The position numbers and the translations under genes were made by a program. A DNA stretch of 64,000 nucleotides from a virus (taxonomy: Duplodnaviria > Caudoviricetes), in the IMG/VR virus record IMGVR_UViG_3300029288_000072, positions 32,001 through 96,000 of that record; one strand, 5' to 3'. How positions within the stretch are numbered: position 1 is the stretch's first letter; the number at the start of each line of letters is the position of its first letter. Below, in pieces: positions 318-29,357 of the stretch. Under the pieces are notes generated by a model. It was not told the origin of the DNA, searched no databases, and was given only the letters and a program-made list of their open reading frames with translations.

Positions 318-878
318 ATGACTCAAAAACTTTTTACACCCGAATCTTTTTCCAAAGAAGATTATGATCTTTTACAAAAGGCTGGATTTAGATTTGTAAA
401 AGATCGTCATGAAGATACATGGCATATAACTATTCTGTTTAATCGTCAACGGTGTGGATGGTCTTATTGCTGGAATATAGATGTTGTAAAAGATATTATA
501 AATCTTTTAAAACTTGATTCGGATGTAAATTCGGATGAAGTTTATAATAGATTTTATAAACGTTTAAATATTATAACATACGAATATGAGCAATCTTTTT
601 CACGATTACATTACAAACATAGAAGTGGTTCTCCACATTTTTATAATACAAACAGATGGATATTAGAAAATGAATTAGTTGCAGAAGGTGATGATTATTA
701 TTTTATTAATTATATTCCAATGGGAGATACAGCAGACGGTAGTATACATACTAAAAAATTATATAAAACATTAGATCCAGTTAAGCAAATAGCTATAAAT
801 GCTATACAAAAACAAATAGAATCTGCAATTGAATTCAAAGAATTAATAGAAAAATATGACATGACATTTCATCAATGA
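318..878 (+). CDS. hypothetical protein, probably truncated by the RHH-TnpB insertion
   Basis: AAAGGA RBS; ends at the element's left edge; orphan frame resumes at 2370. Confidence 0.7.
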   Translation: MTQKLFTPESFSKEDYDLLQKAGFRFVKDRHEDTWHITILFNRQRCGWSYCWNIDVVKDIINLLKLDSDVNSDEVYNRFYKRLNIITYEYEQSFSRLHYKHRSGSPHFYNTNRWILENELVAEGDDYYFINYIPMGDTADGSIHTKKLYKTLDPVKQIAINAIQKQIESAIEFKELIEKYDMTFHQ

Positions 879-958
879 AGTATAAATGTATTAATAAGTA
901 TAAAAAATTATTTTATGATACAATGAGTATAAATAAATTATATAAAGGAAGTAATAAT

Positions 959-1111
959 ATGAGAACGAAGTCATTAATCGTAAAAGTAACAGAAAATGAA
1001 CAAAAACTAATAAAAGAACGAGCAGAAGCATTAGGATTTGATTCAGTTAGTGATTATATACGATATATAGCACTAAATACAGAAAGTATTAAAAGAAGTA
1101 TAAGTAAATGA
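959..1111 (+). CDS. ribbon-helix-helix (CopG/MobC-like) DNA-binding protein, 50 aa
   Basis: MRTKSLIVKVTENEQKLIKERAEALGFDSVSDYIRYIAL fits the RHH pattern; AAAGGAAG RBS before ATG959; ATGA-coupled to the next gene. Confidence 0.75.
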   Translation: MRTKSLIVKVTENEQKLIKERAEALGFDSVSDYIRYIALNTESIKRSISK

Positions 1112-2367
1112 AAACATATAAACTACCAATAGTAATAGAAGAAGATGACAAATCATATATAAATGATTTGTGTCGTCAACAATCTATTATAGTTCGTAGT
1201 TCATATAATGATTTACTAAAAGGTAATTTAGTCAAAGACTTAGAACAAAAATACAAATCATTAAATAATATAGAAGATATGGATTCATGGTTTATTAGAT
1301 GTGGTATTCTTAGAGGAAAATCATTAACTAAACACAAACATATAATATTTGGTGGTAAACATACATTATCAAAATTGAATAAAAAGAAGATAACTAAAGA
1401 GGAATGGAAAAATAGAAGATTATATTCACTAGACATACAAGGTGAAAAACATCAAGGTGGTAATAGAAAATTCGAATTAAAATTAGAAGAAAATCAAATA
1501 TTATTCAAACCAAATAGAAATAAGAAGATATTAATTCAATTACCAAAGATAAGAAGAAAGTGGAAGAATGAACTTCAATATATTCAAGAAACTGAATCCT
1601 GTTTTTCAATTAAATTAACCAATAATACAATAGAAATCGTAGTAGATGAATTATTATTCAAACATGATAATTATTCATCAATAAAAGGAAGAATATTAGG
1701 TATTGATCTTAATCCAGATTATATTGGATATAATATTACTGATTTTCCGAAGAAAAAAGTAGTAATCAAAGAATGCTATAATACAGAAGAATTAAATACA
1801 AAATCAGGATTATCATCAGATCATCCAAAATCAAAATATCTCAAAAATAAAAGAAAATACGAATACTTACAAATATGTCACGAAATTATCCAAAAATGTA
1901 TTCATTACAAAGTAGAAAAATTATGTATCGAAGACCTTAATATTAAATCACAAGATTTTGGTAATAAACATACTAATAGAAAAAATAACCTTTGGATGAA
2001 AACCCTAATAAATAATAAACTGAAAATGTTGTGTAATATAGTAGGTATCGAATATGTAGAAATTAATCCAGCATATACTAGTATTATTGGTAATTTAGTA
2101 TATAATGATTTCGATCCAATAAGTGCAAGTAGAGAAATAAGTAGGAGAGGTTATTATAAGTACCAGAAAGGTAAGTTCTATCCAGGTTTAGAGTCTGTGA
2201 AACACCAATGGAAGGAAATGGTCACAGAAGATATCAATTCATGGAAAGAATTTGCCACTAAATTAAAAACTCTGGACATCAGATACAGAGTTCCACTAAA
2301 TGAAAATCATGTGGTTTCTAGACTTAAATATATAAAAAAGAAAATAACTTTATACTCTTTTATATAA
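1108..2367 (+). CDS. tnpB: TnpB/Cas12f-related RuvC nuclease lacking the zinc finger
   Basis: RuvC-I GIDLN, RuvC-II IEDLN, INPAYTSIIG...DPISASREISRRG; no CxxC pairs. Confidence 0.8.
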   Translation: MKTYKLPIVIEEDDKSYINDLCRQQSIIVRSSYNDLLKGNLVKDLEQKYKSLNNIEDMDSWFIRCGILRGKSLTKHKHIIFGGKHTLSKLNKKKITKEEWKNRRLYSLDIQGEKHQGGNRKFELKLEENQILFKPNRNKKILIQLPKIRRKWKNELQYIQETESCFSIKLTNNTIEIVVDELLFKHDNYSSIKGRILGIDLNPDYIGYNITDFPKKKVVIKECYNTEELNTKSGLSSDHPKSKYLKNKRKYEYLQICHEIIQKCIHYKVEKLCIEDLNIKSQDFGNKHTNRKNNLWMKTLINNKLKMLCNIVGIEYVEINPAYTSIIGNLVYNDFDPISASREISRRGYYKYQKGKFYPGLESVKHQWKEMVTEDINSWKEFATKLKTLDIRYRVPLNENHVVSRLKYIKKKITLYSFI

Positions 2368-2369
2368 AA

Positions 2370-2507
2370 AGACTATCTGAAGATGAGATAACTAAAATTA
2401 TTGATAATTATTTAATGGAAACACCTAATATTATACCACCATCATTAATCGGTGATATTATGACAAAATTTAAAGAATTGAAAAATAAAGATAATATATT
2501 TGAATAA
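2370..2507 (+). pseudogene. orphan 45-codon frame, likely C-terminus of ORF 318
   Basis: RLSEDEITKIIDNYLMETPN...KDNIFE* starts right after the tnpB stop, no RBS. Confidence 0.5.
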
Positions 2508-2524
2508 TATTTAAAGGATATTAA

Positions 2525-2902
2525 ATGGAATCATATCAATATTATATAGAAAAAACTAAATGGAAATTCACAAGTTCATTATTTTCGGATGATATTCTTG
2601 GTGTATTAATATCAGTTGATAAAAAAGAATTGTATGTAGAATTGAATAATTGCCTTTGCCCTAACTGTGATTTTTCAAAACATATGCCTGATACATGTAT
2701 AACATTACAAAAACATGGTTATATCAAAAATGTAAAAGAATTTTATTTGACATATGTGGATTCTCCATTAAGGAAATTTTGTGATTTCCACTATATTGAG
2801 TTATTACCAACATATAAAAATTGTGAAAATATTAATAAAATTATATCAACATCATGTTTGCCTGTTAAATATTTAGATAAACTCATTAAAGACAATACTT
2901 GA
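2525..2902 (+). CDS. hypothetical protein
   Basis: ORF with AAAGGA RBS. Confidence 0.7.
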   Translation: MESYQYYIEKTKWKFTSSLFSDDILGVLISVDKKELYVELNNCLCPNCDFSKHMPDTCITLQKHGYIKNVKEFYLTYVDSPLRKFCDFHYIELLPTYKNCENINKIISTSCLPVKYLDKLIKDNT

Positions 2903-2961
2903 TTTTTATTGACATCTTTATTATTTCTGTTATCATTATACAAATCAAAAAAGGAGATTAT

Positions 2962-3618
2962 ATGTTCAAACTATTATATTTTAAATCAGTAGAAGACTTT
3001 AAAGAGCATTCTATAAATGAAATAATGGAGGCACATTTTGTTGCATATAGAGAAGGCGATGGTAATTATTTTGTTGTAAAAAACAAATGTGGTGCATGTA
3101 ATAGATCGTTTACAGAATCCGCATTTAAATTACATTTAGTACAATCAATAAACGAATATCAAGATATTGGATATGTTCATCCTCCATTTGATCGTGCATC
3201 ATTTATGCCATCATATTCTCCACAATATCATGCTGGAGATGTTGTTGCATGGAAATATGTTAAGGAATCTGTTGAACATTTTGCCATGATTGAAATGTAT
3301 ACTCAAGAAAAGTATTATTTTGATACTCCAATTGCAGCAGATCCTCAATTATTGAAATCTTTTACAGCATATAGTAGAATAGTTGATCAAAATTTGTATA
3401 TAAGAAAAGCAACAAAAGAAGAAAAAGAACAATATATTAAAAATAAAATATGTAAAACAAATTCAATCCAATCATCAGAATATACAAAAGAAGAGACAGA
3501 AATTTGGAAACACGTATTTGATAAATATTCTGCAAACAGGGCAACAGACATAGATAATATATTTAAAATATGTGATAGAGCAGTTAAAAGCTTTAGAAAA
3601 ACTGTACAAGGAAACTGA
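2962..3618 (+). CDS. hypothetical protein
   Basis: AAGGAG RBS before ATG2962; promoter TTGACA-N16-TATCAT at 2909-2936. Confidence 0.75.
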   Translation: MFKLLYFKSVEDFKEHSINEIMEAHFVAYREGDGNYFVVKNKCGACNRSFTESAFKLHLVQSINEYQDIGYVHPPFDRASFMPSYSPQYHAGDVVAWKYVKESVEHFAMIEMYTQEKYYFDTPIAADPQLLKSFTAYSRIVDQNLYIRKATKEEKEQYIKNKICKTNSIQSSEYTKEETEIWKHVFDKYSANRATDIDNIFKICDRAVKSFRKTVQGN

Positions 3619-3621
3619 TAT

Positions 3622-5626
3622 ATGTTAGAGTTGGAATTAATTCCTACGGATATCTTAAGAAAAGAACTATCAAAAAGAGAAGAAATACAACGTAAAAAAG
3701 AATATGATGATAGCGAAAAACATAGAATAAAGGAAATGAAACAATTAAGAACACTTCTTAAAGAAAAAGGTTTTAATAAAAGAATTATAATTTGTGGTGA
3801 ATCTGATGCATACAATATTCAATATGATGTTGGGTGGTTTAATAATACAGAAAGTAGATTTGGCAAAAGGGAAATTCCTATTAGAATTGTTCGAACAACC
3901 GATACATTAGATAAAATAGCAAAAGATCTTATTGATGATAATAATAGATATTGTAGAAAAAATCATACATTAGTATTATATGGTATTTTTTCAAAACAAG
4001 ATTATTTTAATGAATATAATATGCGTTATATTAAATATAGATATTTTAAAAATGATAGAATAAAACATAATTTTATAAAAGGATGACAATAATGATAGAA
4101 GGATTTGAAAATAAAGAAGCATTCGCTAGATTTAATTATATAATTGATATAGTACGAGGAAACAACATACCTATACAATGGAAATTATTGCCACAAACAG
4201 AAAAAGATATATATTTAAGAGAATCAGAAATAGCAGAATATGTTATAACCGAAGATGATTGCGATGATTTAGAACAATTTATTATGGGGAAATCAAAATG
4301 ATTACGTTACACTGGTCATATGGTTCTTCTTATTATGGTGATAATAAAGAAGCAGACTTTAAAATAATACATCGTGATAAGTTACAAACATTAATATGTC
4401 TTATTAATCGGGAGTTGTTGAGAACAGAAGAAATACCTATTACTTTTGTGTGTGGTAGATATGCATCTTGTGTATTAAAAGAAGCATTAATGGCATGTGG
4501 ATATTCTATACGACATTCAGAAAAATGGAATATTGTTATTGACACATCATTAGAATTAAATATTATTAAATTTAATGATGTTGAATTAACACTAATAGAT
4601 GCATCCAACATACAATTTGAATTTTATTCTCCATTTAATAATCTTGATGGGATATATAGATTATCTTCTATTTTAAATGAAGAAATAAAAAATAATAACT
4701 TAAAAGCAGCGTTAATGTTAACAGAAACATTACAAAGTAAATTAAAAGAAATAATAAATGGCTAAAATTAGAAAAATATACAAAATAGAGAAAAATAAAA
4801 TAGTTGAATATATTGTTGAGCCAAATCATGTTTTATCTGGCTGGTCTATTTTATTGGCCCCACCAGATAAAGATGGATATTGTAGTATATATCCTATATC
4901 AAACGAGGCATTAAAAAGAAGTAGATTTGATTCAATTAAAAAAGCAGAAACTTATGTTGGACTTGAAAATATAATATATTATAATGGTAGAGAAGAAGCA
5001 GAAGAAGTTCTTGAATTGGAAAGGAGATTTAAAAAATGAGCGGCAGATATAAAATCCATTTCGATAGTATTGCACATAATCCTCCACAAGAAATATCAGA
5101 AGAAGAAAAAGTTAGAAGAAAAGACCGCGACGAATTATATAAAACAAGAAAAAAGATATGGGATGATACCGCAAAAGTAGTAGATGGAATTCCCGGTAAA
5201 TGTGTCATTGTTTCCCGAGCCGAAAAACTAAGTATATTTGTAGACAAAAAACTAGTTGATGTTTGGCAATCTGATAAAGAAAGTATTTTATATTATTATA
5301 ATGATATAGAATTTCTTTCTGGTACAGCAGGATATATTTTGGTTTGTTCCGATGGTAAAAAACTAAGACAAATAACATTGATGAGTTGATACATGTTTAT
5401 TAAAAACAGATTATTTGATAAAGCAATTTTGATATTAAAAGATACATCCCTTAAGGAATATCAAATATTAAATGCAGCATATCAAAACATATTAACACAG
5501 AATTATGTTAATGAAATAAATAGACAAGACGATATTGTAAACTTATTTCGTAACAATAAATATTTTTGTAATATTTTAATACATATAGCACTTTTCGATT
5601 TTGAAAAAGATTTTGAAAGAAAATGA
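3622..5626 (+). other. run of coupled small hypothetical CDSs (3622-4086, 4083-4301, 4298-4765, 4758-5039, 5036-5389, 5393-5626)
   Basis: Overlapping or abutting start/stop codons on the same strand; no recognisable motifs. Confidence 0.7.
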
Positions 5627-5907
5627 ATACTAAAGTAGTTCATTGTAATGCAGAAAAGTACGATGTATATATAGGACGACCTTCTATTTGGGAAAATCCT
5701 TTTATAATAGGAAAAGATGGGACACGAAAAGAAGTAATAGAAAAGTACGAAAAATATTTGAGAAATAACGAAGAATTAATAAATAGAATAATGGAATTGG
5801 ATGGAAAAATATTAGGATGTTGGTGTAAACCAAAACCATGCCACGGGGATATTATTATAAAAATTATAAACGAAATTAAAAACGAAAATATGTTAGGGGA
5901 ATTATGA
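5623..5907 (+). CDS. DUF4326 family protein
   Basis: YDVYIGRPSIWENPF...LGCWCKPKPCHGD signature. Confidence 0.85.
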   Translation: MNTKVVHCNAEKYDVYIGRPSIWENPFIIGKDGTRKEVIEKYEKYLRNNEELINRIMELDGKILGCWCKPKPCHGDIIIKIINEIKNENMLGEL

Positions 5908-6096
5908 CGAAGAAAGAATTATATATAGATGAACATGATGATATTCAGTATTTTGTTGATAAAATGGTATGTTATTTTAATAATAATGATATTAAAAACG
6001 CAATAAAAATGTATAAAAGGCTCAAATTAATGGAAGATGCTGATATAATTTACAGATTGTCTAAACCCGCATTTAAATTTTAATGGAGAAAAATAT

Positions 6097-6600
6097 ATGA
6101 CATCTAAAAAATCAATTAAATTTGGAAATACTAAAGAATTTGAGAATGATTTTAGAAAACATAATAAAGAAAATCTTGAAGAAATTCTTACAACCAAATT
6201 AGATAAATCTTTGAAAAAATCTGAAAAAGAAAATAAAATTCCTGAAATAAAAGAAGTATTACGATCATATTTATTTGTATTTAATAATGATGTACACTTA
6301 ACTGCATATATCAGAGAAATTAAATTTATTGATAATAAAACAATAAATTTACAATTTTTAGAAACAGAAAATTTAGACACAATACTATCTCTTGAAAAAC
6401 TAAAATATAAGGATATATACATATCTATTATTAATAGAACAGGATGTGACCTTTTAAGAATAGAATTTAATTTAAATGATATTATTGATATATACCCAAC
6501 CATATTATCACATGATTCTGGAGTTGCAATTTTTAATACAACATTAAAAATAAAAAATTTACACTATACAAAAATACCAGAAAAGAATAAAAATGTTTGA
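6097..6600 (+). CDS. hypothetical protein, possible T4 gp19 tail-tube-like fragment
   Basis: GGAG RBS; IYISIINRTG..LRIEF..IYPTILSHDS pattern loosely resembles the gp19 C-terminal half. Confidence 0.35.
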   Translation: MTSKKSIKFGNTKEFENDFRKHNKENLEEILTTKLDKSLKKSEKENKIPEIKEVLRSYLFVFNNDVHLTAYIREIKFIDNKTINLQFLETENLDTILSLEKLKYKDIYISIINRTGCDLLRIEFNLNDIIDIYPTILSHDSGVAIFNTTLKIKNLHYTKIPEKNKNV

Positions 6601-7652: not shown

Positions 7653-7662
7653 GTGAATTAAC

Positions 7663-8071: not shown

Positions 8072-8326
8072 ATGGAAAAAGATATTTTAATAGTAGAAGA
8101 TTCTCAAGAAAGAATGAAACATATTAAACAATATGTTATAGGATATTCTTATGATTTAGCAGAAACGGCTGATTCTGCAATTTATTATTTAAAATCGTTT
8201 CAATATGATTATATATTTTTAGATCATGATTTAGCACAAAAGCATTACGAAAAAGAAGTTTTTGGAAAAGGAACAGGATTAGAGGTAGCTAATTATATTG
8301 CTGACAATCAACTACCCACAACCTAA
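8072..8326 (+). pseudogene. cyclic-phosphate-processing receiver-like domain, truncated by TnpB element
   Basis: ILIVED...YDYIFLDHDL...GTGLEVA motif; the last 7 codons come from the element end. Confidence 0.7.
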
Positions 8327-8343
8327 AGGTAGTGGGTTTGTAA

Positions 8344-9441
8344 CTAACTCTTGCGAGTCGCTACAATAGGCTGGTTGATTTCAGCCCTTGAAATATTAAT
8401 AGCAGCATTGTAGTCTGCATTAACTTCATAACCACAAGAAACACATTTAAAGTTTTCTTGAGTTAGTCTGTTTTCTTCGCAAATATACCCACATTGACTA
8501 CACTTCTGGCTTGTATAAGCAGGATTAATATATAACACTGGAACTCCAAGTAACTTTGCTTTATAGTCAATCATTTGTCTTAATTGACCAAAAGCCCACT
8601 TACCTCTTCGTGCATTATTATCCTTCCATTCTTTAGTCCAACCTTTTTGCGGAACTTGTTTCTTGAAGTTTAGATCTTCTAATTTGATTCCAACTCCAAG
8701 TGTCTTTGCTTTTTGAACTAAACGTTTACTTATACAATGATTTGTATCTTTCTTGAATCTTGATTCTTTTTTACTTATTTTCTTTAATCTACGCTTTGCA
8801 CTTCTACTACCTTTACTTTGCAATCTTGCTTTATATGAAGTTATTTTCTTTCTATAAGTCTCTACTCTTTCTCCACTTACAACTTCACCATCAGAGCAAG
8901 TAGCAAGATTTACTATACCTAAATCTACCCCAAGGAAATCTTTAACTTTATTAGTAGGTTCTTCGCTTGTTTCAGCGAAGAATGTAACATAAAACTTCCC
9001 TTTAACTTTATCATAACTTAATTCACTTTGACAACTTAAATCTAAATCTTCTAATGACTTACGAGTTCTAAATGGTAATTGAGTTCTTTTACCCAAAATC
9101 ATAATAGATAATTCATTATCTTTTTTAATAGTTAAATTTCTACTATCGTAATCAATTGAACCTAACTCGTTAAATGTCAATACTTTATTCTTTTGATTCC
9201 AGTTTTTATAGCAATCAGTTACTTTACCTATAACTCTTACAGCAAGTTGACTTGAAAGATTAAATCTTTGTTTTATCTCGTAATATACTATTTTATGTAA
9301 ATTAACTTTATTAAAAGTTTTTGTTTCAACTGCTTTTTGACTTACCCAATCACAAGCAGAATTAAAAACTTTCATAACATTAAGGAGTTCTTGATGTTGT
9401 TTTTCGTTTGGTAATAATTTACATTTAACTGCTAACTTCAT
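8344..9441 (-). CDS. tnpB: RNA-guided endonuclease TnpB
   Basis: GVDLG, LEDL, NPAYTSQKCSQCG...CVSCG..NADYNAA; all RuvC acidic residues present. Confidence 0.95.
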   Translation of the reverse strand: MKLAVKCKLLPNEKQHQELLNVMKVFNSACDWVSQKAVETKTFNKVNLHKIVYYEIKQRFNLSSQLAVRVIGKVTDCYKNWNQKNKVLTFNELGSIDYDSRNLTIKKDNELSIMILGKRTQLPFRTRKSLEDLDLSCQSELSYDKVKGKFYVTFFAETSEEPTNKVKDFLGVDLGIVNLATCSDGEVVSGERVETYRKKITSYKARLQSKGSRSAKRRLKKISKKESRFKKDTNHCISKRLVQKAKTLGVGIKLEDLNFKKQVPQKGWTKEWKDNNARRGKWAFGQLRQMIDYKAKLLGVPVLYINPAYTSQKCSQCGYICEENRLTQENFKCVSCGYEVNADYNAAINISRAEINQPIVATRKS

Positions 9442-9464
9442 CTTTTCCTCCTTTCATACTAATA

Positions 9465-9472
9465 TATTTATA
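9465..9472 (-). promoter_or_regulatory. T4-type late promoter TATAAATA for tnpB
   Basis: TATTTATA on + strand, 23 nt upstream of the tnpB ATG and upstream of a GAGGAG-type RBS. Confidence 0.55.
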
Positions 9473-9487
9473 ATCGAAAAATAAAAT

Positions 9488-9515
9488 TTGACAAACTTTT
9501 TTATTCTATTATAAT
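9488..9515 (+). promoter_or_regulatory. outward-facing TTGACA-N16-TATAAT promoter within element left end
   Basis: Perfect hexamers; an equivalent exists in the second copy. Confidence 0.65.
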
Positions 9516-9583
9516 AAGTAGTAGAAAGGACGGCAATTACTCCCACCACCTAAAGGTAGTGGGTTTCCTTGCCGACATTAACA

Positions 9584-9844
9584 ATGAAAAAATTAAAAAG
9601 AAAAATAACAAAAAGGCGTAATTATGAATACCCTTTTTCTGATGATGGTGGATTACACAATCCAAATATAAATTTTGTTTGTTTTGATTGTAGATTTGTA
9701 ACAAGAGATAAAAATGGTCAAACTCCTACATGTCCACATTGTGGAAAACAAATGACAAATGTATTTTGTAGAGATGAAATCCCAAGAAAAACAAATAATA
9801 GAGGATGGAAACTTTTAGAAAGAAAACACGGATGGATGAAATAG
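9584..9844 (+). CDS. zinc-ribbon protein
   Basis: CFDC...CPHCG; ATG9584 is the first base outside the element. Confidence 0.65.
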   Translation: MKKLKRKITKRRNYEYPFSDDGGLHNPNINFVCFDCRFVTRDKNGQTPTCPHCGKQMTNVFCRDEIPRKTNNRGWKLLERKHGWMK

Positions 9845-18868: not shown

Positions 18869-20675
18869 GTGGGGTTAAACAAGAAAGGAATTACCATGAT
18901 TAATTCCATTAAATCTAGCCTCGGTAAAGTAACTAATCAGTTTCTAAAAGATAGAAACTTATTTGAAGAAAAGAATATAAAATACATTTCAAGAATAATT
19001 GATGATTGGATATCGCATCATGTATATGTTACTACATTTAAAAAACAAATACATATAGAAGAATTAAATGATTGGAAACTTGATTGTGAGTCTCCTATGG
19101 CATATAATTTATACCATAAAAACAAATTAGTTTCTAGATTAAAATTTGAGTTTGTTTTTAATACAAAAACAATGCTTCTTTTAACGCATGTATCTGATAT
19201 AAAAGGATTTACGTCGAAATTTGAAAAGGAATTAATATGAAAAAAATACCTATTAAAGCTGCAAAAGAAATATCAAAAGAATATAATCAAGATCAAGTTA
19301 TTCTTTTAACATTCGATAAAAAGACTGGCCTAACTCATGTAGTAACATATGGTAAAACAAAAGAAGATTGTATCCAGGCTGCACAGGGAGGAAACTTAAT
19401 AAAAGAAAAGATTTTAAAATGGCCAGCAGATAAATGTACTGCAGTTCCTTCCCGTTCAGAATGGAAATGGGAAAAGACAGATCAGAAACTACAATTTTCA
19501 GATGCTAAATCAGAAGATATTGTTTGGGTTTGTTTTGACGATGAAGAAAATGGATATCATGAAGGATTCGCCAGATTAATAGAAGGATCAGATTGTTTTT
19601 ACTTTGATCCTCCTATACAAAAAGATTGTCCAAGAGTATTATATTATGCTGGTAGTGCGGACTGGACAAAAACATCCAGTTGGGTAGAAGTCTATAAATG
19701 TAAGGAAATAAAATGAAAAATTCAATTAAAGACATAATAAATGTATATAATAAACAATTAGAAGAAGTTAAATTTATTCTTTATTTATTGAATTGGATTA
19801 ATCATTGTCCAAATGTTTTAAAACATTTTGTTTCGGATAAAATAAAAAATAATGCTAAAAGAATAGGTGAAATGTATTATGATAAAAATAACAAAGAAGA
19901 ATTTCATAATATTTGTTTAATTATAGAAAGTGGAGTTTTCAATACAAAGAATATCACAATTAAATCAAACGGAATACATAATTATATTGACTACAAAGAA
20001 AAAGGTGATAAAATAGCTACTAAGAAAGATATTATAAAGTTCATAAAAACATATAAGGATATTAAAAAGATATGAAATTATTTTTGTTAATTATATTAAT
20101 GTTATTAAGTTTTTGTTCTGCTAGATTTCTTCCAACAGAAGAAACTAATATGGTTAACAATGACCAAGAATGTATACAGGAAGGATTTACAATATTTAAA
20201 CTTGATTTTTGATTATGTTATATAAAAAAGATAGTATAAACAAAATAATAATTAAAAAAGATACAATAAAAAAGCCAATAGACATTAAACTGGAATGTCC
20301 TATTTGTAAATCAGTAAATAATTGTAAAGATAGAGAAATAGAATTACCTGGATGGATTCACGAAAAAAGGATATTCTGGATATTTTCATGATAAATTTTA
20401 AAGAAGTGAAATATCTTTCAAATACAAATGATAATATTTTTTTATTGATGTTTAATTTGGATGTTGATATTCTTGTATCTTATACAGAAGATAATAGTAT
20501 TGATATATTTGAAAAAACGTATAAGAAAGGAATGCCGATAGTATTAAAGAATACTAAAGATTTATTGCTGTCTGCATGGAAATTATATACAATGTTTAAT
20601 GATTATGTTCCTAAGAAAAATGAATATTTTGATTTAAAATCATTAAATCTAAAGGAGGTTAAAAATGAAAATTAG
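18869..20675 (+). other. run of hypothetical CDSs (18869-19240, 19237-19716, 19713-20075, 20209-20391, 20388-20675)
   Basis: Mostly coupled ORFs downstream of promoter 18843-18870. Confidence 0.65.
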
Positions 20676-21728: not shown

Positions 21729-21764
21729 TTATAAATAATAATTATAACCATACTGGAGAACTGC

Positions 21765-23033
21765 ATGGAAATTCGCCATCGGCTTCAAAAAATATTCTAT
21801 GAACATGTAGAATTAAGTGAAGAAGAACGTTTTTCTACTGCAATACAGAAAGAATTAGAAGAAGAATATAACAATTTGCTATCATCTACTCCAAAAACGG
21901 ATCAAAATACACCAGAACAGGAATTGGAAGCATTTACAGACACATTAAAAGAATTGGCTATTTCTCCATTAGATAAAGAAACAGTTCCCGTCATAATTAA
22001 TATGACTATTAGTAAAGCTAAAGAAGGACTGTCAACAGAACATATTTTAAAATTTTTAAAAACAAAGTTTAAGATAGATGCAGAACTTGAAGGACAACTT
22101 TCTACTATTTTGAAGAAATTGACTGATGTAAATCCGTTAGTAGAAGAAGCACAACAAATGGTACAGGATATATTACCAAAATTAGTATTAGTATTTAAAC
22201 CATCATGTGGTATGAACAGTCCGGAATTTGTAGATCGTTCCAAAGATCATTTAATGAAATATATTGATCGTATTAATGGAAAAAAAGTAGAAATAAATCA
22301 AGCATTGAAAGAAATGAAAGCATTATTTACCTTAGATTCTGATTTAGAAAAGCAAGTAGAGTCTATTTTTCAGAAGTCTATAACACCTATAGTCGAAACA
22401 CAAAATCCACCACAATCATCTCCTAGTACAAATGATGCTCCTGCAACAACAGGATCACCATCTACAAATGATTCAGAAATTCCAACAGAAACTCCTATGG
22501 AAGAAGAAAATGGTAAAGCTGGATTTTATGTGGAATATAGAAATCTTTTTGAAGATGTTGATAATATTGCAGAAAGAATAGTTGAAAAAGAAGGTCTAAA
22601 AGAAGAAAATAATGATGCGTTTGGATATACACATTTAAGAGAAACAATCGCAGAGGCATCTTCGGTCGCAATGAGATATGGTGCTAATAAATATCCTAAA
22701 ACTGTATGCCTAGAAGATATAGAAAAAATAATTAATGAAGAATTTAATATAAAAGATCAAGAATTAGTAGAAGAATTAAAAAATACAATAAGACATGCAT
22801 ATGAAATCGGCGAAAATTATTCACAAGATTTTTTAAAGAATTCAGACCTTCATAATGAATGTAAATCAATAGATATGACAATTTCTATGAATGAAATTGT
22901 CGATATATTTGCAGAAAAAGAGAATGAAGAAGAACTTGTTGAAATAGAAAAGGTTGATGATATAATAGAAGAACCAATAACAGAAAAAGATGCATATAGA
23001 GAAAAATTAAATCGTCTTTTTTCTGATGACTGA
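21765..23033 (+). CDS. acidic helical protein, possibly late/virion-assembly
   Basis: Glu-rich with P/S/T linker; TATAAATA at 21730-21737 and GGAG RBS. Confidence 0.6.
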   Translation: MEIRHRLQKIFYEHVELSEEERFSTAIQKELEEEYNNLLSSTPKTDQNTPEQELEAFTDTLKELAISPLDKETVPVIINMTISKAKEGLSTEHILKFLKTKFKIDAELEGQLSTILKKLTDVNPLVEEAQQMVQDILPKLVLVFKPSCGMNSPEFVDRSKDHLMKYIDRINGKKVEINQALKEMKALFTLDSDLEKQVESIFQKSITPIVETQNPPQSSPSTNDAPATTGSPSTNDSEIPTETPMEEENGKAGFYVEYRNLFEDVDNIAERIVEKEGLKEENNDAFGYTHLRETIAEASSVAMRYGANKYPKTVCLEDIEKIINEEFNIKDQELVEELKNTIRHAYEIGENYSQDFLKNSDLHNECKSIDMTISMNEIVDIFAEKENEEELVEIEKVDDIIEEPITEKDAYREKLNRLFSDD

Positions 23034-23044: not shown

Positions 23045-23350
23045 ATGCAACAATTAAAATTAGATAATATAAAATTAAATGTGGAACCACATTCTGCATC
23101 AAAGGATTTTTGTATTTTAACTTTAAAAACGTCCATAAATGGAATGGAATATTCGGAATCAATATCAGTATATTCTAAGTTTATATTTGATAATATGGAT
23201 TCAAATAGTCAATCAAATGCTTTAGATGAAATAGTTTCTAAATTATCGTATGATTTAGTTTCTAAAGCATATTTGTCACTAGATAAAAGAGTTAAATCAT
23301 CTTGTGATATGAAAAAAGTTTTAGAGTCTATGAAATCATTATTATCTTGA
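23045..23350 (+). CDS. hypothetical protein
   Basis: ORF track. Confidence 0.65.
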   Translation: MQQLKLDNIKLNVEPHSASKDFCILTLKTSINGMEYSESISVYSKFIFDNMDSNSQSNALDEIVSKLSYDLVSKAYLSLDKRVKSSCDMKKVLESMKSLLS

Positions 23351-23420
23351 CTCTATTTGTTGTTCTGGTATAATAGTTAAATCAACGCAAGCCATATCTT
23401 ATTATAAAAAGGAGAAAATC

Positions 23421-23609
23421 ATGGCATCAGTTCGTTATTTTGTAAAGAGCAATACTCACAAGTCTTATATTGCTCGTCGCACACGTACCAGTCCTACAGG
23501 TCGTCGTTATGCATGGACTAGCAATCGTTCAAATGTAGTATATTTTACTAATCGTAATGCTGCATACAACGTTGCCCGTCGTTATGGTGGTCGTATCGTA
23601 ACTGCTTGA
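23421..23609 (+). CDS. small Arg-rich basic protein (62 aa)
   Basis: Own promoter 23347-23374, AAGGAG RBS, no Asp/Glu, CGT-biased Arg codons. Confidence 0.85.
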   Translation: MASVRYFVKSNTHKSYIARRTRTSPTGRRYAWTSNRSNVVYFTNRNAAYNVARRYGGRIVTA

Positions 23610-23622
23610 TACAATCATAAGT

Positions 23623-23662
23623 ATAGAATCGCCATAGGTTTATATGCCTATGGCGATTCTAT
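23623..23662. terminator. perfect 16-bp hairpin between convergent genes
   Basis: ATAGAATCGCCATAGG-8 nt loop-CCTATGGCGATTCTAT. Confidence 0.75.
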
Positions 23663-24901
23663 TTGACATTTAAAATAATGTCTTATTATTTTATAAATTC
23701 CCGCATATGAATAACCCAATTCTATTGATATTTCTTTTATAGTTAAACCATTTTTATAAAGTATAATACTTTGTTCTTTTATATTTTTTGCTTTTTCGTA
23801 TCTCAATACATAATTTAAATCAATTTTATCCCATTTTCTTAATAATAGAGGAATATTTAATGTTAATGCTTTTTCTTTAAGTTTTGTTATTAATAACATT
23901 TTTGTAAAATTTAAAGTTGCATATCCGCTATTATTTATTTTTGTTAGTTTATTGGAAGATTCTTTTAAAATAATGTTATAAATTTTATTTTCTATAAATT
24001 TTAAATTTTCGATCCAAGATGAATGACATTTTATTGTAATTATATTTGATTTTCTTCCGCTTTGAAATTTAATACATCCATCACCATCTATAAATCCACA
24101 TATTAAACTAATCCACTGATCATCAGTAAGGTTATAATTGTTAAATATTGGAGGATTATATGTTTTTGTATTACTTATTTCATATTTTTGTACTACTTCT
24201 GGAATAATATCTTTATTCTGACAGGACAACACAGATTTGTGTTCATAGTTAATAACTTTTGTATTTAAAACACCAGAAATTTTTATTAAATGGTCTTTAT
24301 CTTTTTCTGATACAGTTATACTCAATCTACTATTTTTTATGTCAATATGCCCATCTGCTAAAATAAATCCAATTATATACATAATATCATTAGTTTCTTT
24401 TAATAAACATTCTAAATTACTTTTTCTAAAAAATTTATATGATCTTTTAAATTTTTTGTTTGATGATTTTTTATATAGATTATGTGCTTTTAAAACAATA
24501 GCATCCCATGATCGGTTTAAAGTATTTAAAATAAATTTTTTATCTTCATTTTTATAATTTTCTTTTAAAAATATAATTTCTTCTGGTGTCCATGGTTTAT
24601 TTTTTCTAATTAATTTTAGTAAATTTGCTTTTTGTAAAATACTTGTATATTTTCTATTAGGTAATAGCTTTTCTAATTCCTTTTTTGGTTTATAAAAATT
24701 TTCTTTTAATAATAAAATTTCTTCTTTTGTCCATTCATTATGGTGTTTTCTTTTTATTCTACATTTTATTTTTAGTTTTTTCTTTTTTGATATTATACTT
24801 TTTAATGATCTTTTTGGAAACAATTTAATAAGATAATTTTTATCAATTATACTTGGCAATGATTTTAAATTATTAAGTTCATATTCAGACCATGGTTCCA
24901 T
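23648..24901 (-). CDS. free-standing LAGLIDADG homing endonuclease with N-terminal W-x-x-E-E-x-x-x-L helical repeats
   Basis: YIIGFILADGHI and LICGFIDGDGCI; C-terminal HTH; TATAAATA at 24922-24929 and GGAGA RBS. Confidence 0.88.
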   Translation of the reverse strand: MEPWSEYELNNLKSLPSIIDKNYLIKLFPKRSLKSIISKKKKLKIKCRIKRKHHNEWTKEEILLLKENFYKPKKELEKLLPNRKYTSILQKANLLKLIRKNKPWTPEEIIFLKENYKNEDKKFILNTLNRSWDAIVLKAHNLYKKSSNKKFKRSYKFFRKSNLECLLKETNDIMYIIGFILADGHIDIKNSRLSITVSEKDKDHLIKISGVLNTKVINYEHKSVLSCQNKDIIPEVVQKYEISNTKTYNPPIFNNYNLTDDQWISLICGFIDGDGCIKFQSGRKSNIITIKCHSSWIENLKFIENKIYNIILKESSNKLTKINNSGYATLNFTKMLLITKLKEKALTLNIPLLLRKWDKIDLNYVLRYEKAKNIKEQSIILYKNGLTIKEISIELGYSYAGIYKIIRHYFKCQIESP

Positions 24902-25011
24902 ATTATTTTATCTCCAAATAGTATTTATATCATGTGTATCAAAAAATAAATATTGACATATATTTTTACTATGATATAATGTTAAAACAACCAGCAAATA
25001 AAGGAAAAACG

Positions 25012-25619
25012 ATGAAGATATTCTTCACATCGGATATTCATTTTTTATCCATTTTGGGCATAAAAATATTATAAAGTATTGTAATCGACCATTCAAATCT
25101 GTTGATGAAATGAATGAGACTATAATTTATAATTGGAATAATACAGTGACATTAGACGATACTATATATTGTTTAGGAGATTTTGGGTTTGGTCCCGTCA
25201 ATAATTTATTACCATTATTTAATAGACTCAATGGCAAAAAAATATTAATTCGCGGAAATCATGATAAAAAAGATGTAATAAAATTACCATGGGATTCTAT
25301 TCATGATATTCTTGAAGTAAAATATCAAAATATAACATATAACCTATGTCATTATCCTGATTATCATATGAGGACATGTAGTAAGTCTTCTTATGACACT
25401 AGATATCTTTTTGGTCATTGTCACGGTGCATTAACTCCACATAATTGTTCTTGTGATGTTGGTATGGATTGTTGGGGGTTTACTCCAGTTTCTATATTAC
25501 AACTTGATAAGCTTTTTGAAAACCTTCCTAAAAACATAAATGAAACAATATTAGAAACTAATACCATATGGAATGCTATCCAATTTATGGATAAAATAGA
25601 TCAAAATACAATAATATAA
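25012..25619 (+). CDS. calcineurin-like metallophosphoesterase, frameshifted near codon 12
   Basis: MKIFFTSDIHF in frame 0, then HFGHKNII...LGDFG...GNHD...FGHCH in the -1 frame. Confidence 0.8.
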
Positions 25620-25693
25620 AATTAATAAAATATTTGAAAGTTATATTTTTAATGATATAATCATATTTAATAACCACTCATTAAAGGAAATAA

Positions 25694-26236
25694 ATGCCTA
25701 AGAATACATTAATAGTGAATCTTTTTGCTGGACCTGGAGCAGGAAAATCAACGGTTGCAGCAGGAGTGTTTGAAGGATTAAAAGAACAAAACATAGATTG
25801 TGAATTAATCACTGAATATGCAAAACAAGCTACATGGGAAGAAAATAAACTTGCGTTAAAAGATCAGTTTTATACTTCTGCGAATCAATATCATAGAGAA
25901 TTTATCGTTTATGGTAAAGTTGATGTTATCGTAACAGATTCTCCTATTTTAATAGGACTTATGTATTTTTCAGATCCAAATGAACGTAAGTTTTTTGCAT
26001 TAAGAAAATATCTATTAGAATGCTTTACTGAACGAAAGAATTTAAATATATTTCTTGACAGAGTAAAGACATATAATCCAAATGGAAGAAACCAAACAGA
26101 ACAAGAATCTTCTCAAATAGATTTAAAAATAAATACGTTTTTAAATGAAAATAAAATACCATATATTAATGTTCCTGGAAATCAAATTGGAAAAACCAAA
26201 ATTCTTGAAGAAATTTTAAAATCAATTAAAGGTTAA
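25694..26236 (+). CDS. P-loop ATPase/kinase (NadR-like AAA_28)
   Basis: AGPGAGKST, VTDSP, YNPNGRNQTEQE. Confidence 0.8.
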   Translation: MPKNTLIVNLFAGPGAGKSTVAAGVFEGLKEQNIDCELITEYAKQATWEENKLALKDQFYTSANQYHREFIVYGKVDVIVTDSPILIGLMYFSDPNERKFFALRKYLLECFTERKNLNIFLDRVKTYNPNGRNQTEQESSQIDLKINTFLNENKIPYINVPGNQIGKTKILEEILKSIKG

Positions 26237-26239
26237 TAT

Positions 26240-26458
26240 ATGCAATTTAAACCATGGATCGAAATGATGTGTAATATCGCATTTTTATTATTTTTGGTTA
26301 TTGCCATAACATATTTAAATATTTGGATGTTTGTATTTGGTATAATATTATTAGTCATATTATTTGTAATAATTTCGTTTTTCACGACACGAAATAATCC
26401 TATAGAAATAAAAGACAATGATCCAGAATTAGTATGGCAAAGGAATCAGAAAAAATGA
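26240..26458 (+). CDS. small membrane protein
   Basis: Two hydrophobic helices. Confidence 0.6.
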   Translation: MQFKPWIEMMCNIAFLLFLVIAITYLNIWMFVFGIILLVILFVIISFFTTRNNPIEIKDNDPELVWQRNQKK

Positions 26459-26964
26459 GTTGGGATTATCGTATAGCTAGACAAATATGTGATAAAGGAA
26501 AAAAGTATGAGAGTTTTTCATATTTTATTGTAGAAGCATATTATGACGAAAATAATAAAGTTTTTATGATTTCTGATCAAGCACAATCTCCATATGGAGA
26601 AAATATTTGTGAATTAATGGAAAATTGGGTTATGTTTGCTGATGCGTTCAATAAACCAATTTTAGATTATGATAATATTCCAGAACCAGGAGCAAAAAAT
26701 ATAATTGAGAACGAATTAAATGATTTAAAAGATGATTTAAAAAATAACGCAATTGAATACTTAGAAAAAGAAGGAAAAATATCAAGATTTTTAATAGAAG
26801 ATTTAATTACAGAAGAAGAGTATGAACAATATAAAAAAGATGAGGATGACAAAAGAAAAGAATCTGAAATGAAATATTATGTTGACAATGTAGGAACAAA
26901 TATAATAGATGTAATTAAGAAAATTATTGTTAAATATTTTACACCAAAAAAGGAAAACAAATGA
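26434..26964 (+). CDS. hypothetical protein (WxYR N-terminal motif)
   Basis: MSWDYRI...IVEAYYDE...DAFNKPIL. Confidence 0.65.
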   Translation: MAKESEKMSWDYRIARQICDKGKKYESFSYFIVEAYYDENNKVFMISDQAQSPYGENICELMENWVMFADAFNKPILDYDNIPEPGAKNIIENELNDLKDDLKNNAIEYLEKEGKISRFLIEDLITEEEYEQYKKDEDDKRKESEMKYYVDNVGTNIIDVIKKIIVKYFTPKKENK

Positions 26965-27755
26965 TACACCCAACATTGGGAGATAGAATGAAACGTTATG
27001 AAGAAGTTTTTAATACTTCTTTAATGCGTAGAACACCAGTCATTATTAGATTGGACGGAAAAGCATTTCATACATATACAAGAGATAGAAAGAAACCAGT
27101 AGATGAAAATTTATCTTTGGCTATGCAATTTGCAACTCAATATCTTGTTAAAAATATTCAGGGGTGTAAATTTGGGTACACACAATCAGATGAAATTAGT
27201 TTATTATTGACTGATTATGATACATTAGAAACTGATGCATGGTTCGATAATACTATTCAGAAAATAGTTAGTATATCCGCATCATATTGTACATTGATTT
27301 TTAATAGACAATTACATTCACTAGATATGTTGAAAGCATCATATGATCCCAAAATACAAATAAAACCACCTAAAGATGCATATTTTGATTCTAGAGCATT
27401 TAATCTTCCTAGAGAAGAAGTATGTAATTATTTTATTTGGAGACAACAAGATTGTAGAAAAAATGCTATATCTATGGCAGCACAAGCAAATTTCTCTCAT
27501 AAACAGTTGCATAAAATGAAGTCTGGTGATAAAATCGCAATGTTATCAACAGTAGGAATTGATTTTGAAACAGTATATCCGAAATCATTTCGGTATGGAG
27601 CAGTATATCATCGTAAACTAGATGATTATGGTATGCATGTTCGATTTCATACTGATTGTGATATTGAAATACCAGACTTTAAAGAAGATAGAGAATATAT
27701 TAACCGATTTGTTTATTCAGAAAGTGAAACAGATGCAAAACAAGAGAATATTTGA
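26961..27755 (+). CDS. thg1: tRNA(His) guanylyltransferase Thg1-like protein
   Basis: RMKRYE, IIRLDGKAFH, YTQSDEIS, FDSRAF, YFIWRQQD..KNAI. Confidence 0.95.
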   Translation: MIHPTLGDRMKRYEEVFNTSLMRRTPVIIRLDGKAFHTYTRDRKKPVDENLSLAMQFATQYLVKNIQGCKFGYTQSDEISLLLTDYDTLETDAWFDNTIQKIVSISASYCTLIFNRQLHSLDMLKASYDPKIQIKPPKDAYFDSRAFNLPREEVCNYFIWRQQDCRKNAISMAAQANFSHKQLHKMKSGDKIAMLSTVGIDFETVYPKSFRYGAVYHRKLDDYGMHVRFHTDCDIEIPDFKEDREYINRFVYSESETDAKQENI

Positions 27756-27916
27756 AATAGATTACTATTATCTATTACAATTTAATAATCTTAAAACATT
27801 GCTTGTTGAATCTGAAAGCAGAACCCAGGCAGAAGATTATTGTAGAAAATTGGAATATCCAAATAAAATAAACATAAAACATATCAAATACCATTGGGCA
27901 AAATAGAAAGGAAAAC

Positions 27917-28025
27917 ATGTTTAAATACATCAAGTTACTCAAAAAAGAATTTTTATCTTCAAGAAATAGAAATAAGATATTATCTTATGATTTTAATCAA
28001 ACACAAGAAGAAATTGACAATTCAT
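27917..28025 (+). pseudogene. 5' fragment of Pth2-like gene interrupted by TnpB element
   Basis: AAAGGA RBS; 36 codons ending at the TTCAT TAM; joins 29338 in frame. Confidence 0.75.
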
Positions 28026-28164
28026 CTGTTCTGTGGCAAGGAAACCCACTACCTTTAGGTGGTGGGAGGAATTACCACATCCTCCTTTCTTAATAGTGTA
28101 TCACTCAACATTATACAACATATTGTATAATATAAAAATAGTTTGTCAAATCTTATTTTCCGGA

Positions 28165-28172
28165 TATAAATA
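28165..28172 (+). promoter_or_regulatory. T4-type late promoter TATAAATA for tnpB
   Basis: 30 nt upstream of ATG28203. Confidence 0.55.
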
Positions 28173-28202
28173 ACTATGTATTGAAGAAATAATGAGGCTA
28201 TA

Positions 28203-29300
28203 ATGAAACTAGCAACGAGAGTAAAACTACTAGCAAACAAAAGTGAGAAAGAACAACTCACTCAAGTTATGATTGCTACTAATAGAGCCTCTAATTGGGT
28301 TGCTGAAGTTGCATTTAATAATAAAACTTTTGGTCAAGTTCAACTTCACAAACTCGTATATTACGAAATTAAGCAAAGGTTTAATCTTTCTTCTCAACTT
28401 GCTGTAAGATCAATAGGTAGAGTCGTAGATGTATATAAAAATAAAAAACAAAGAAGTAAAGTTATAAAATTTGATGAAATGAGTGCAATTGATTATGATA
28501 CTCGCAATCTTTCAATTAAAAAAGATAGTGAAATTTCCATAACAACTCTTGGAAAAAGAATTAAGTTACAATATAGAAGTCGTAAGCCATTGGAAACTTA
28601 TGAATTATGCACCCAAAGTGAATTGAGTTATGATAAAGCAAAGGGGAAGTTTTATGTTAACTTCTTCCGCATTGAAAACGAAAAAGCAAATGATGAAGTA
28701 AAAGATTTCCTCGGTGTAGATTTAGGTATAGTGAATCTTGCTACTTGTAGTGATGGTGAAGTGGTAAGTGGTGAACGAGTAGAAAGTTATAGAAAGAAAA
28801 TAACTTTACATAAAAGTAATTTACAAAGTAAAGGTAGTAGAAGTGCAAAGCGTAGATTAAAGAAAATAAGTAAAAAAGAAGCAAGATTCAAGAAAGATAC
28901 GAACCATTGTATAAGTAAGCGTTTAGTTCAAAAAGCAAAGACACTTGGAGTTGGAATCAAATTAGAAGATCTAAACTTCAAGAAACAAGTTCCGCAAAAA
29001 GGTTGGACTAAAGAATGGAAAGATAATAATGCAAGAAAGGGTAAGTGGGCATTTGGTCAATTAAGAAAATTTATTGACTACAAGGCTAAACTTATCGGTG
29101 TTCCAGTGTTATATATTAATCCTGCTTATACGAGTCAAATGTGTAGCAAGTGTGGTCATACTCACGAAGAAAATAGATTAACTCAAAGTGAGTTTAAATG
29201 TATTTCTTGTGGATATAGTGAAAATGCTGATTACAATGCTGCTATTAATATTTCAAGGGCTGAAATCAACCAGCCTATTGTAGCGACTCGCAAGAGTTAG
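28203..29300 (+). CDS. tnpB: RNA-guided endonuclease TnpB
   Basis: Intact RuvC D/E/D and Zn finger; paralog of 8344-9441. Confidence 0.95.
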   Translation: MKLATRVKLLANKSEKEQLTQVMIATNRASNWVAEVAFNNKTFGQVQLHKLVYYEIKQRFNLSSQLAVRSIGRVVDVYKNKKQRSKVIKFDEMSAIDYDTRNLSIKKDSEISITTLGKRIKLQYRSRKPLETYELCTQSELSYDKAKGKFYVNFFRIENEKANDEVKDFLGVDLGIVNLATCSDGEVVSGERVESYRKKITLHKSNLQSKGSRSAKRRLKKISKKEARFKKDTNHCISKRLVQKAKTLGVGIKLEDLNFKKQVPQKGWTKEWKDNNARKGKWAFGQLRKFIDYKAKLIGVPVLYINPAYTSQMCSKCGHTHEENRLTQSEFKCISCGYSENADYNAAINISRAEINQPIVATRKS

Positions 29301-29357
29301 TTACAAACCCACTACCTTTAGGTGGTGGGTAGTTGATTTAGAATGTATGTATTAGTT
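29230..29357 (+). ncRNA. putative omegaRNA 3' scaffold plus guide (5' end unknown)
   Basis: tnpB 3' end and RE nearly identical between the two copies; GACTC-GCAA-GAGTT and RE hairpins; guide would start TTAGAATGTATG at 29338. Confidence 0.55.

Follow-up and report, generated by a model that had tools for sequence, protein, structure and literature searches.

TnpB-Family Nuclease Genes behind a Putative T4-Type Late Promoter in a Large AT-Rich Phage

Introduction

Cas12 descends from TnpB nucleases, whose natural role is still under study. Bacterial TnpB is a homing endonuclease that uses a guide RNA and maintains the transposon at its site (PMC10055086, PMC10690162). Spread that is independent of the transposase TnpA has been observed in plasmids and, for co-infecting phages, put forward as a proposal (PMC13565253). 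TnpB-only insertion sequence (IS) elements have been known in the phages CP220 and CPt10 since 2010 (PMC2853527); the Thermus-phage protein Cas12r, a TnpB derivative, is the product of a middle gene and is accompanied by a CRISPR array (bioRxiv 10.64898/2026.04.20.719267); and the intron endonucleases of phage T4 are expressed from middle or late promoters, with I-TevI repressing its own late promoter (PMC2988022). Our literature search found no paper linking TnpB to a phage late promoter, the Thermus-phage Cas12r being the nearest case. Here we analyze a 64 kb stretch of viral DNA (the window), i.e., bases 32001-96000 of the 198,442 bp IMG/VR virus record IMGVR_UViG_3300029288_000072, in which three TnpB-family genes and a LAGLIDADG-like endonuclease gene stand behind the 8-mer TATAAATA (the box), which is of the T4 late promoter type. 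Positions are those of the window, unless they are said to be those of the genome, i.e., of the whole record.

Results

Nuclease Genes Preceded by the Box

The first-pass annotation of the window had placed TATAAATA upstream of five genes, i.e., "all three TnpB genes," a LAGLIDADG gene and a fibre gene, and all five positions were correct, with gaps of 20-31 nt to the start codons. The wording "all three TnpB genes" held for two of them, which are canonical: tnpB copy A (8344-9441, minus strand, 365 aa), with its box on the same strand at 9465-9472, inside the left end of the element and 23 nt before the ATG (9441), and tnpB copy B (28203-29300, plus strand, 365 aa, 75% identical to copy A), with its box at 28165-28172 (plus strand), 30 nt before the ATG (28203). 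It did not hold for the third gene (1108-2367, plus strand), whose 419-aa product is a TnpB-like RuvC nuclease that lacks the Zn finger and belongs to the IS607-type OrfB proteins (SSO2105_N family). This OrfB gene follows a small ribbon-helix-helix (RHH) gene, and it is the RHH gene that the box directly precedes (928-935, plus strand, 23 nt before the ATG at 959). The LAGLIDADG-like endonuclease gene (23648-24901, minus strand, 417 aa) is free-standing and antisense to its neighbors; its product scored 28.3 bits with LAGLIDADG_3, above the cut-off, and also hit a PHROG endonuclease family, and its box (24922-24929, minus strand) lies 20 nt before the ATG (24901).

Further nuclease genes of this kind were found outside the window. 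A fourth TnpB (tnpB#3), which is canonical and has 408 aa, is encoded at 19.2-20.4 kb of the genome, where it follows a 48-aa RHH gene, with TATAAATA 15 nt before the latter. An HNH-like gene of 104 aa carries the box as well, and a gene for a TnsA-like PD-(D/E)xK endonuclease of 151 aa (PF08722, E 2.5e-20; G000:C1:197552-198033, L008:1552-2033) lies behind a palindromic TATTTATAAATA, which presents the box on both strands, as it does at 51614-51625 in the window. The exception was a 200-aa HNH gene (35508-36110; PF01844 and PF14279), which sits inside a plus-strand operon and has no box of its own. Counting copies A and B once, the box was present at six of seven nuclease loci, compared with 14 of 90 other genes with their own upstream region (Fisher p 2e-4; 7e-7 when compared with all genes).

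The earlier statement that no element contains tnpA could be extended to the whole 198 kb record, in which there was no Y1 transposase (PF01797 was absent); nor was a serine recombinase found in the record, which is estimated to be 84% complete. Elements A and B are non-autonomous. Hairpins that would sequester the ribosome-binding site (RBS), as in I-TevI, were not found at five nuclease genes, where fold z scores ranged from -0.95 to +0.8.

The Box as a Promoter Class

Judged by the proteins it encodes, the source genome, which has a GC content of 28% and a CheckV completeness estimate of 84%, is that of a distant T4-like phage; megablast with 50 kb of the window returned no near-identical phage relative from GenBank. 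A gp55-like sigma factor, for which the first-pass annotation had suggested looking elsewhere in the genome, is present: a gp55-type late sigma is encoded at genome positions 180553-181032 (phrog_234, E 5.5e-30; 36% identity to T4 gp55, E 7e-13). There was also a match in the genome to the gp45-type sliding clamp family (E 8e-8), and the phage encodes a gp32 homolog and a baseplate wedge protein; most of its remaining proteins had no match in Pfam or PHROGs.

A plain count of TATAAATA is misleading, since the signal lies in its placement. The window contains 14 sites, compared with 29.7 in shuffled sequences, so that the plain count is in fact depleted, and the genome total of 43 sites is the lowest among the 56 anagrams of the same letters (anagram median 108). 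As to placement, 24 of these 43 sites fall within the 13% of the DNA that is non-coding. The comparison with shuffled sequence that had been proposed along with the original claim came out in its favor: with our own crude calls of 256 genes, a sense-oriented box was present in the -70 to -1 region of 21 genes, versus 6.3-7.5 in shuffles (maximum 18 in 1000). When the comparison was limited to genes preceded by 40 nt or more of non-coding DNA (98 genes), TATAAATA was the commonest of all 8-mers in the -60 to -1 regions, where it occurred 16 times in the sense orientation and 4 times in the antisense orientation. It mostly stands 14-38 nt away from the start codon, and it precedes the genes for the baseplate wedge protein, a collagen-like fibre and an L-Ala-D-Glu peptidase, together with genes of unknown function, being depleted in coding DNA.

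Non-coding TATAAATA sites cluster at 80-140 kb and 170-198 kb of the genome, and sigma-70-like promoters (mostly TTGACA, a 15 or 16 nt spacer and TATAAT) at 0-70 kb. In this early region, five of the seven non-coding boxes precede selfish nuclease genes. The genome has 62 non-coding sigma-70-like sites, and only the two at tnpB copies A and B contain TATAAATA. Most boxes have no -35 element; those of copies A and B have the -35-like hexamer TTGTCA at 16 nt upstream (9489-9494, minus strand, and 28143-28148, plus strand). The occurrence of gp55 and the upstream placement of TATAAATA together argue that the box represents a genuine promoter class of the phage, most likely the late one, and it appears from this evidence that late genes are read from TATAAATA by the host RNA polymerase carrying the phage gp55-type sigma.

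The spacers of the non-coding sigma-70-like sites are unusually short throughout the genome, with 16 nt at 33 sites, 15 nt at 20 sites and, rarely, 17 nt (5 sites).

Conservation of the Box in Relatives

In a large protein collection we found a subclade with 75%-91% amino acid identity to copy A. The nearest cellular TnpBs are at most 46% identical, and the box was present in none of 40 of these. Four members of the A/B subclade (L277, L278, L279 and L280) were read in detail; they come from independent contigs of 31%-42% GC with different flanks, and in all four TATAAATA lies 17-21 nt before the ATG. With A and B themselves, the box is invariant in six of six members of the subclade, 17-30 nt before the ATG. 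Upstream of it there are two arrangements: in A, B and L279 it is preceded by TTGTCA and then 16 nt, and in L277, L278 and L280 by a complete extended -10 element (TGGTATAAT or TGGTATACT) and then 4 nt. Because both types occur across the subclade, the box appears to have stayed fixed while the sigma-70 parts were rearranged; in L277, L278 and L280, to judge from this arrangement, it is not needed as a -10 element. In L277 and L280 the remaining copies of the box are likewise found 5-25 nt upstream of called gene starts, and the phages of these two contigs probably use it too. The first-pass annotation had described the box of A and B as kept within a diverged spacer; the box is indeed kept, but so are TTGTCA and the spacer that precedes the box.

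In the RHH-OrfB module, the box was kept in the three closest relatives of OrfB. It is preceded in the window by a sigma-70-like extended -10 element, TGATACAAT (916-924, plus strand), and then 3 nt, and in relative L105 (66% identity) by TGTTATAAT and then 4 nt; in L189 (61%) and L108 (60%) it lies between the stop codon of a resolvase gene and the start of OrfB. OrfB is the only gene common to the contigs of these relatives and this genome. Among the relatives of tnpB#3, L290 (68%) has the box 26 nt before tnpB, and L286-288 (57%-58%) have it 20 nt before an open reading frame (ORF) of about 60 aa that encodes a helix-turn-helix (HTH) protein and precedes tnpB. As read from these loci, the box recurs in three TnpB lineages of AT-rich large phage contigs.

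A different situation was encountered on two IMG/VR contigs (L017:2900-3001 and L018:100-202, i.e., L208 and L209) that encode a 45%-identical TnpB, with a left end close to Methanosarcinales copies. Here, TATAAATA occurs about 37 nt before the ATG, probably as an archaeal TATA box, and these "viral" contigs may be archaeal.

IS605-Type Elements A and B

The ends of the two elements were set by alignment of their DNA and by their flanks: both start right after TTCAT and finish with ...GGGTAGTTGAT. Element copy A (8307-9583, minus strand) and element copy B (28026-29337, plus strand) are of the IS605 type and contain tnpB only; the right end of A is at TTGAT, and B was found in identical form in an ENA contig. 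The putative transposon-associated motif (TAM), TTCAT, is at 9584-9588 (minus strand) for copy A, where its complement contains the ATG of an 86-aa gene (9584-9844), and at 28021-28025 (plus strand) for copy B. Relatives also have TTCAT at the left end, seven in all (L198-200, L202 and L278-280). The same hairpin is present at the left and right ends of both copies, so that the left end, too, is hairpin-bearing; the hairpin that a matching Y1 TnpA would have to recognize is CCCACTACC...GGTGGTGGG.

The last 150 nt of A and B form three or four hairpins and are near-identical between the copies (8307-8456, minus strand, fold -45.7 kcal/mol, z -4.1, in A; 29188-29337, plus strand, fold z -3.7, in B), a structured 3' region that looks as expected of an omega-RNA scaffold. 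No Rfam family was matched in 1-30000, i.e., there was no annotated omega-RNA and no group I intron; the latter result ruled out an IStron. The predicted guide-matching flanks, which comprise the first bases past the right end, are at 8287-8306 (minus strand) for copy A, where the sequence is unique in the genome, and at 29338-29357 (plus strand) for copy B. Elsewhere in the genome, neither predicted guide has a match with three or fewer mismatches in its first 16 nt, so that there is no self-target.

Both proteins matched PF07282 (2e-25 for copy A) and PF01385 and retain an intact Zn finger, with D173, E255, D343 and CxxC...CxxC invariant; the protein of copy A had Cas12f and TnpB among its PDB matches. 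Comparison of A with B gave a ratio of nonsynonymous to synonymous substitutions (dN/dS) of 0.31, with dS at 0.56, which indicates that both copies have been under purifying selection since their split. We consider it very likely from such features that TnpB A and B are active guided nucleases. The identity between the two tnpB genes is a mosaic, with 68% in the first 300 nt, 93% in nt 600-840, and complete identity in the last ~100 nt and the right end; this suggests gene conversion between the copies or a strong constraint on the RNA-coding part.

Copy B is located 5 nt before the ATG (29343) of a Pth2-like gene, and its predicted guide overlaps the conserved MYVLVRRD start of that gene. The idea that excision of the element would restore a 143-aa Pth2-like ORF was rejected, because the L100 relative lacks the 36-aa extension and begins at MKMYVLVRRD; since the element lies 5 nt before the start of the gene, the in-frame join is probably due to chance. 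The surroundings of copy B are a gene cluster of the RNA-repair type (26961-32084) that includes Thg1-like, Pth2-like, tRNA-ligase CPD-like and NAD-dependent DNA ligase genes.

The RHH-OrfB Module and the Fourth TnpB

The RHH gene (959-1111, plus strand) encodes a NikA-like protein of 50 aa (PF21983, E 5e-9), and its stop codon overlaps the OrfB start (ATGA). OrfB had no Pfam hit, with PF07282 reaching only 13 bits, and there were no CxxC pairs in its alignment, i.e., the Zn-finger TNB insertion is absent. However, its RuvC motifs align with those of TnpB; more than 150 homologs were found, and D200, E275 and D336 were invariant in 21 aligned sequences. A structural model of OrfB had a predicted local distance difference test (pLDDT) score of 85, and full-length Foldseek matches to it were Cas12f, TnpB and Cas12k (E 1e-9 to 1e-6). 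The relatives of OrfB directly follow either a Resolvase-type gene, in an IS607-like layout, or, like here, a NikA-like RHH gene.

Upstream of the RHH gene are three direct copies of AGTATAAA (879-886, 897-904 and 926-933), of which the last overlaps the late box; these repeats could be operator sites for the RHH protein. A small DNA-binding gene in the position of the transposase was a feature of three TnpB lineages (959-1111 in the window; L011:2562-2708, minus strand; about 610-790 in L286-L288). It is either a gene for a NikA-like RHH protein (48-50 aa) or an HTH ORF (about 60 aa), and it overlaps or abuts tnpB; relatives have a Resolvase-type gene at this place.

Several phage contigs of 130-370 kb carry two to four copies each of the Zn-finger-less OrfB family (the contigs behind L139-L144, L172-L185 and L128/L134/L169), and this copy number points to an actively proliferating element of large phages. 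In the genome studied here, a 190 bp inverted copy (99.5% identity) of the 3' end of the fourth tnpB is present at G000:C1:31040-31228, corresponding to 19170-19359, i.e., at a distance of 12 kb from the full element and some 770 nt ahead of the window. Its downstream flank differs, and a second 3' end with another flank would provide two possible guide RNAs for one nuclease.

Other Boxes in the Window

Three further sites bear on genes other than nuclease genes. A box at 21730-21737 (plus strand) is located 27 nt upstream of a gene (21765-23033) whose 422-aa product has no known function and matched no family. Another, at 34626-34633 (minus strand), is followed after 20 nt by an operon of three minus-strand genes, one of them histidine-kinase-like. 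The palindromic TATTTATAAATA at 51614-51625, with the box on both strands, has the fibre gene on its left and a 61-aa gene on its right; the minus-strand box (51614-51621) is 31 nt before the ATG of the collagen-like fibre gene at 51582.

Discussion

The proposal that these elements are wired into the late program of the phage is well supported at the level of sequence, i.e., by the gp55 homolog, by the behavior of the box as a promoter class, and by its invariance in the relatives of the elements. The box should, with high probability, be a functional late promoter of these nuclease genes. In several elements it is found 3-4 nt past a sigma-70 extended -10 element or 16 nt past a -35 element, and this close juxtaposition suggests tandem or hybrid promoters, early plus late.

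In the mechanism that we propose, late, replication-coupled transcription would yield TnpB and the omega-RNA from one transcript, often early too, via the neighboring sigma-70 element. The resulting ribonucleoprotein would recognize TTCAT together with the sequence flanking the right end, a combination that would be present only in the element-free allele, and would cut empty alleles in co-infecting or freshly excised genomes. Recombination-dependent repair and replication of the T4 type would then copy the element in, which would amount to transposase-independent homing or retention. A TnpA acting in trans would still be required for the occasional jump to a new site, and the products of the small RHH or HTH genes may control their own promoter in the manner of I-TevI in T4 (PMC2988022). 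Homing between co-infecting genomes is plausible and would be consistent with known TnpB biology (PMC10055086, PMC10690162). We lean, by a small degree, toward the whole chain from late box through guided cleavage to homing; on whether homing or retention would be the main benefit of TnpB A and B we are almost evenly divided, with doubt slightly prevailing; and we suggest only tentatively that several transposase-less TnpB lineages are true homing genes of phages, each combining an RHH or HTH regulator, a tandem early/late promoter and RNA-guided spread.

A number of findings count against late wiring or against homing. With regard to homing, only filled alleles were seen, with both elements present in three of three assemblies of the phage (samples with the phage were ENA ERZ27247363 and SRA SRR8542065); this search for empty alleles used exact look-ups of flanking proteins, and Logan contigs break at the ends of the elements. 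No hits were obtained when metagenome contigs were scanned for exact matches to the two right flanks, and a search of IMG/VR that used the ligase returned no relatives. With regard to the late machinery, gp33 and gp59 were not detected with the T4 sequences (phmmer, a single-sequence search in the case of gp33). A 485-aa candidate for the major capsid protein was uninformative in PF07068, Pfam, PHROGs and Atlas, and the label "late" is accordingly founded on a small number of tail and lysis genes. L285, which at 70% is closest to tnpB#3, has only a sigma-70 promoter, with TTGACA, 17 nt and TGATATAAT. The box is not a general rule for phage TnpB, an idea that was rejected when it was found in just 8 of 79, 2 of 77 and 8 of 60 wider IMG/VR relatives; a phage record that encodes gp55 has a TnpB without the box, Rhodothermus phage RM378 has no box, and in the Campylobacter phages CP220 and CPt10 the box occurs at one of four tnpB genes, where it is located in the flank.

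Other points on the same side favor one or other of the alternative explanations. The first of these is that the box is a plain -10 element (TATAAA being close to TATAAT) of a host sigma-70 promoter, the match to the late motif being due to AT-richness and the genes being expressed early, like IS genes. In A, B and L279 the box doubles as the -10 of a sigma-70-like promoter in which the -35, TTGTCA, is conserved too, and the distance between them, exactly 16 nt, is the commonest sigma-70-like spacer of this phage. In the sister clade of A and B (57%-64% identity) the box was present at none of nine loci, and ordinary TATAAT promoters occupy the same place there and in cellular relatives; L201 has TTGTCA followed by TGATATAAT. 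However, L277, L278, L280 and the RHH-OrfB elements have a full extended -10 element 3-4 nt upstream, yet all eight positions of the box are invariant, of which a sigma-70 -10 element leaves positions 7 and 8 unconstrained. Moreover, the box forms a separate class genome-wide with its own sigma, being contained in just 2 of the 62 non-coding sigma-70-like sites. We regard a purely sigma-70 role as unlikely.

Equally improbable in our judgment, as a full explanation, is that these are ordinary non-autonomous IS605/IS607 passengers moved by TnpA in trans, with TnpB merely restoring the copy after excision, by restorative homing on sister genomes, and the box being incidental or serving downstream phage genes. 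Two findings tell in favor of such movement and against homing as the sole mode of spread: the hairpins at the left and right ends are strongly conserved, the left one being nearly identical in A and B although it is dispensable for the omega-RNA, and relatives are found at different sites, mostly adjoining TTCAT. Together these indicate that transposition of the TnpA type, with the enzyme supplied in trans, has also acted. The record is estimated to be only 84% complete, and transcription from the promoter of copy B would continue into the genes for the Pth2-like, tRNA-repair and ligase proteins. On the other side, Y1 and serine transposases are absent from the 198 kb and from the vicinity of the four closest relatives; the nearest cellular TnpBs reach no more than 46% identity, compared with up to 91% for relatives on phage contigs, which argues that the A/B lineage diversifies in phages; and a box that is conserved across lineages can hardly be dismissed as incidental.

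A third reading is that the guided nucleases serve mainly as weapons against related phages, which would cut element-free rivals and exclude their markers with no requirement for copying; this would recall the competition described between intron endonucleases, or phage-borne Cas12-like systems. In its favor, the guide of copy B overlaps the conserved MYVLVRRD start of a gene that distant phages have as well, other mobile elements are the targets of Cas12r, the TnpB-derived phage protein (bioRxiv 10.64898/2026.04.20.719267), and competitor killing by homing endonucleases has been discussed (PMC13565253). Against it, the guide of each element is single and fixed and has no match beyond the insertion site of that element, the more distant relatives that were looked at have no TAM and several mismatches, and A and B have no array or spare guides. 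We consider such a main role very improbable; it would in any case overlap with homing rather than compete with it.

The phage and its relatives offer natural candidates for homing by an RNA-guided nuclease: the elements have no transposase, their nucleases are intact and selected, and in three TnpB lineages the promoter appears to have been remodeled to the late sigma of the phage. They make the question of transposase-free spread directly testable. If the proposal is true, RNA-guided homing without TnpA would for the first time have a natural example in viruses. The elements also illustrate how a mobile element adapts its regulation to a viral host, and the tandem early/late promoter may itself serve as a compact, portable part.

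Among known systems, the homing genes of T4 (I-TevI, I-TevII, I-TevIII and segB), which have middle or late promoters of their own, are likewise selfish nuclease genes behind a TATAAATA-type late promoter in a T4-type genome; they, too, are free-standing and sometimes antisense to their neighbors, and a DNA-binding function at the promoter is plausible here as well. They differ in that the nucleases of T4 are protein-only GIY-YIG or HNH enzymes, whereas those described here are RNA-guided members of the TnpB family with IS ends, and in that the RBS-sequestering hairpin of the I-TevI type is missing here. In addition, seven free-standing genes of T4 have no promoter of their own, whereas here six of seven loci carry the box.

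The bacterial IS200/IS605 TnpBs that act as homing endonucleases, i.e., those of ISDra2 and the G. stearothermophilus IS (PMC10055086, PMC10690162), share with A and B the RuvC D/E/D residues and the Zn finger, the subterminal hairpins, insertion 3' of a 5 nt TAM (TTCAT here) and a structured 3' region that runs into the guide flank. Unlike them, the elements described here are in a genome without TnpA, that of a lytic-type T4-like phage, and have a late box in the left end, and what they are proposed to cut is a co-infecting genome instead of the excised donor site. With IS607, which comprises a serine recombinase TnpA and TnpB, there is the likeness that relatives of the 419-aa OrfB and of tnpB#3 come directly after a Resolvase-type gene; here, however, the recombinase is replaced by an RHH protein of 48-50 aa, or by an HTH-only ORF of about 60 aa in L286-288, and the 419-aa protein is without TNB.

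The TnpB-only ISCaje elements of CP220 and CPt10 (PMC2853527) also reside in AT-rich T4-like myoviruses, with several TnpB-only IS200/IS605 elements whose sites differ between sister phages, but TATAAATA is not systematic at their tnpB genes and a link to late transcription was not described there. Finally, the process called "transposon non-restorative homing" in a 2026 review of OMEGA systems (PMC13565253) corresponds to the one proposed here, in that cleavage by TnpB of the orthologous empty site, in a homologous plasmid or co-infecting phage, is followed by repair that copies the IS with no need for TnpA. For phages the review presents this as theory, whereas the elements described here would be a concrete natural candidate, with promoter evidence from sequence.

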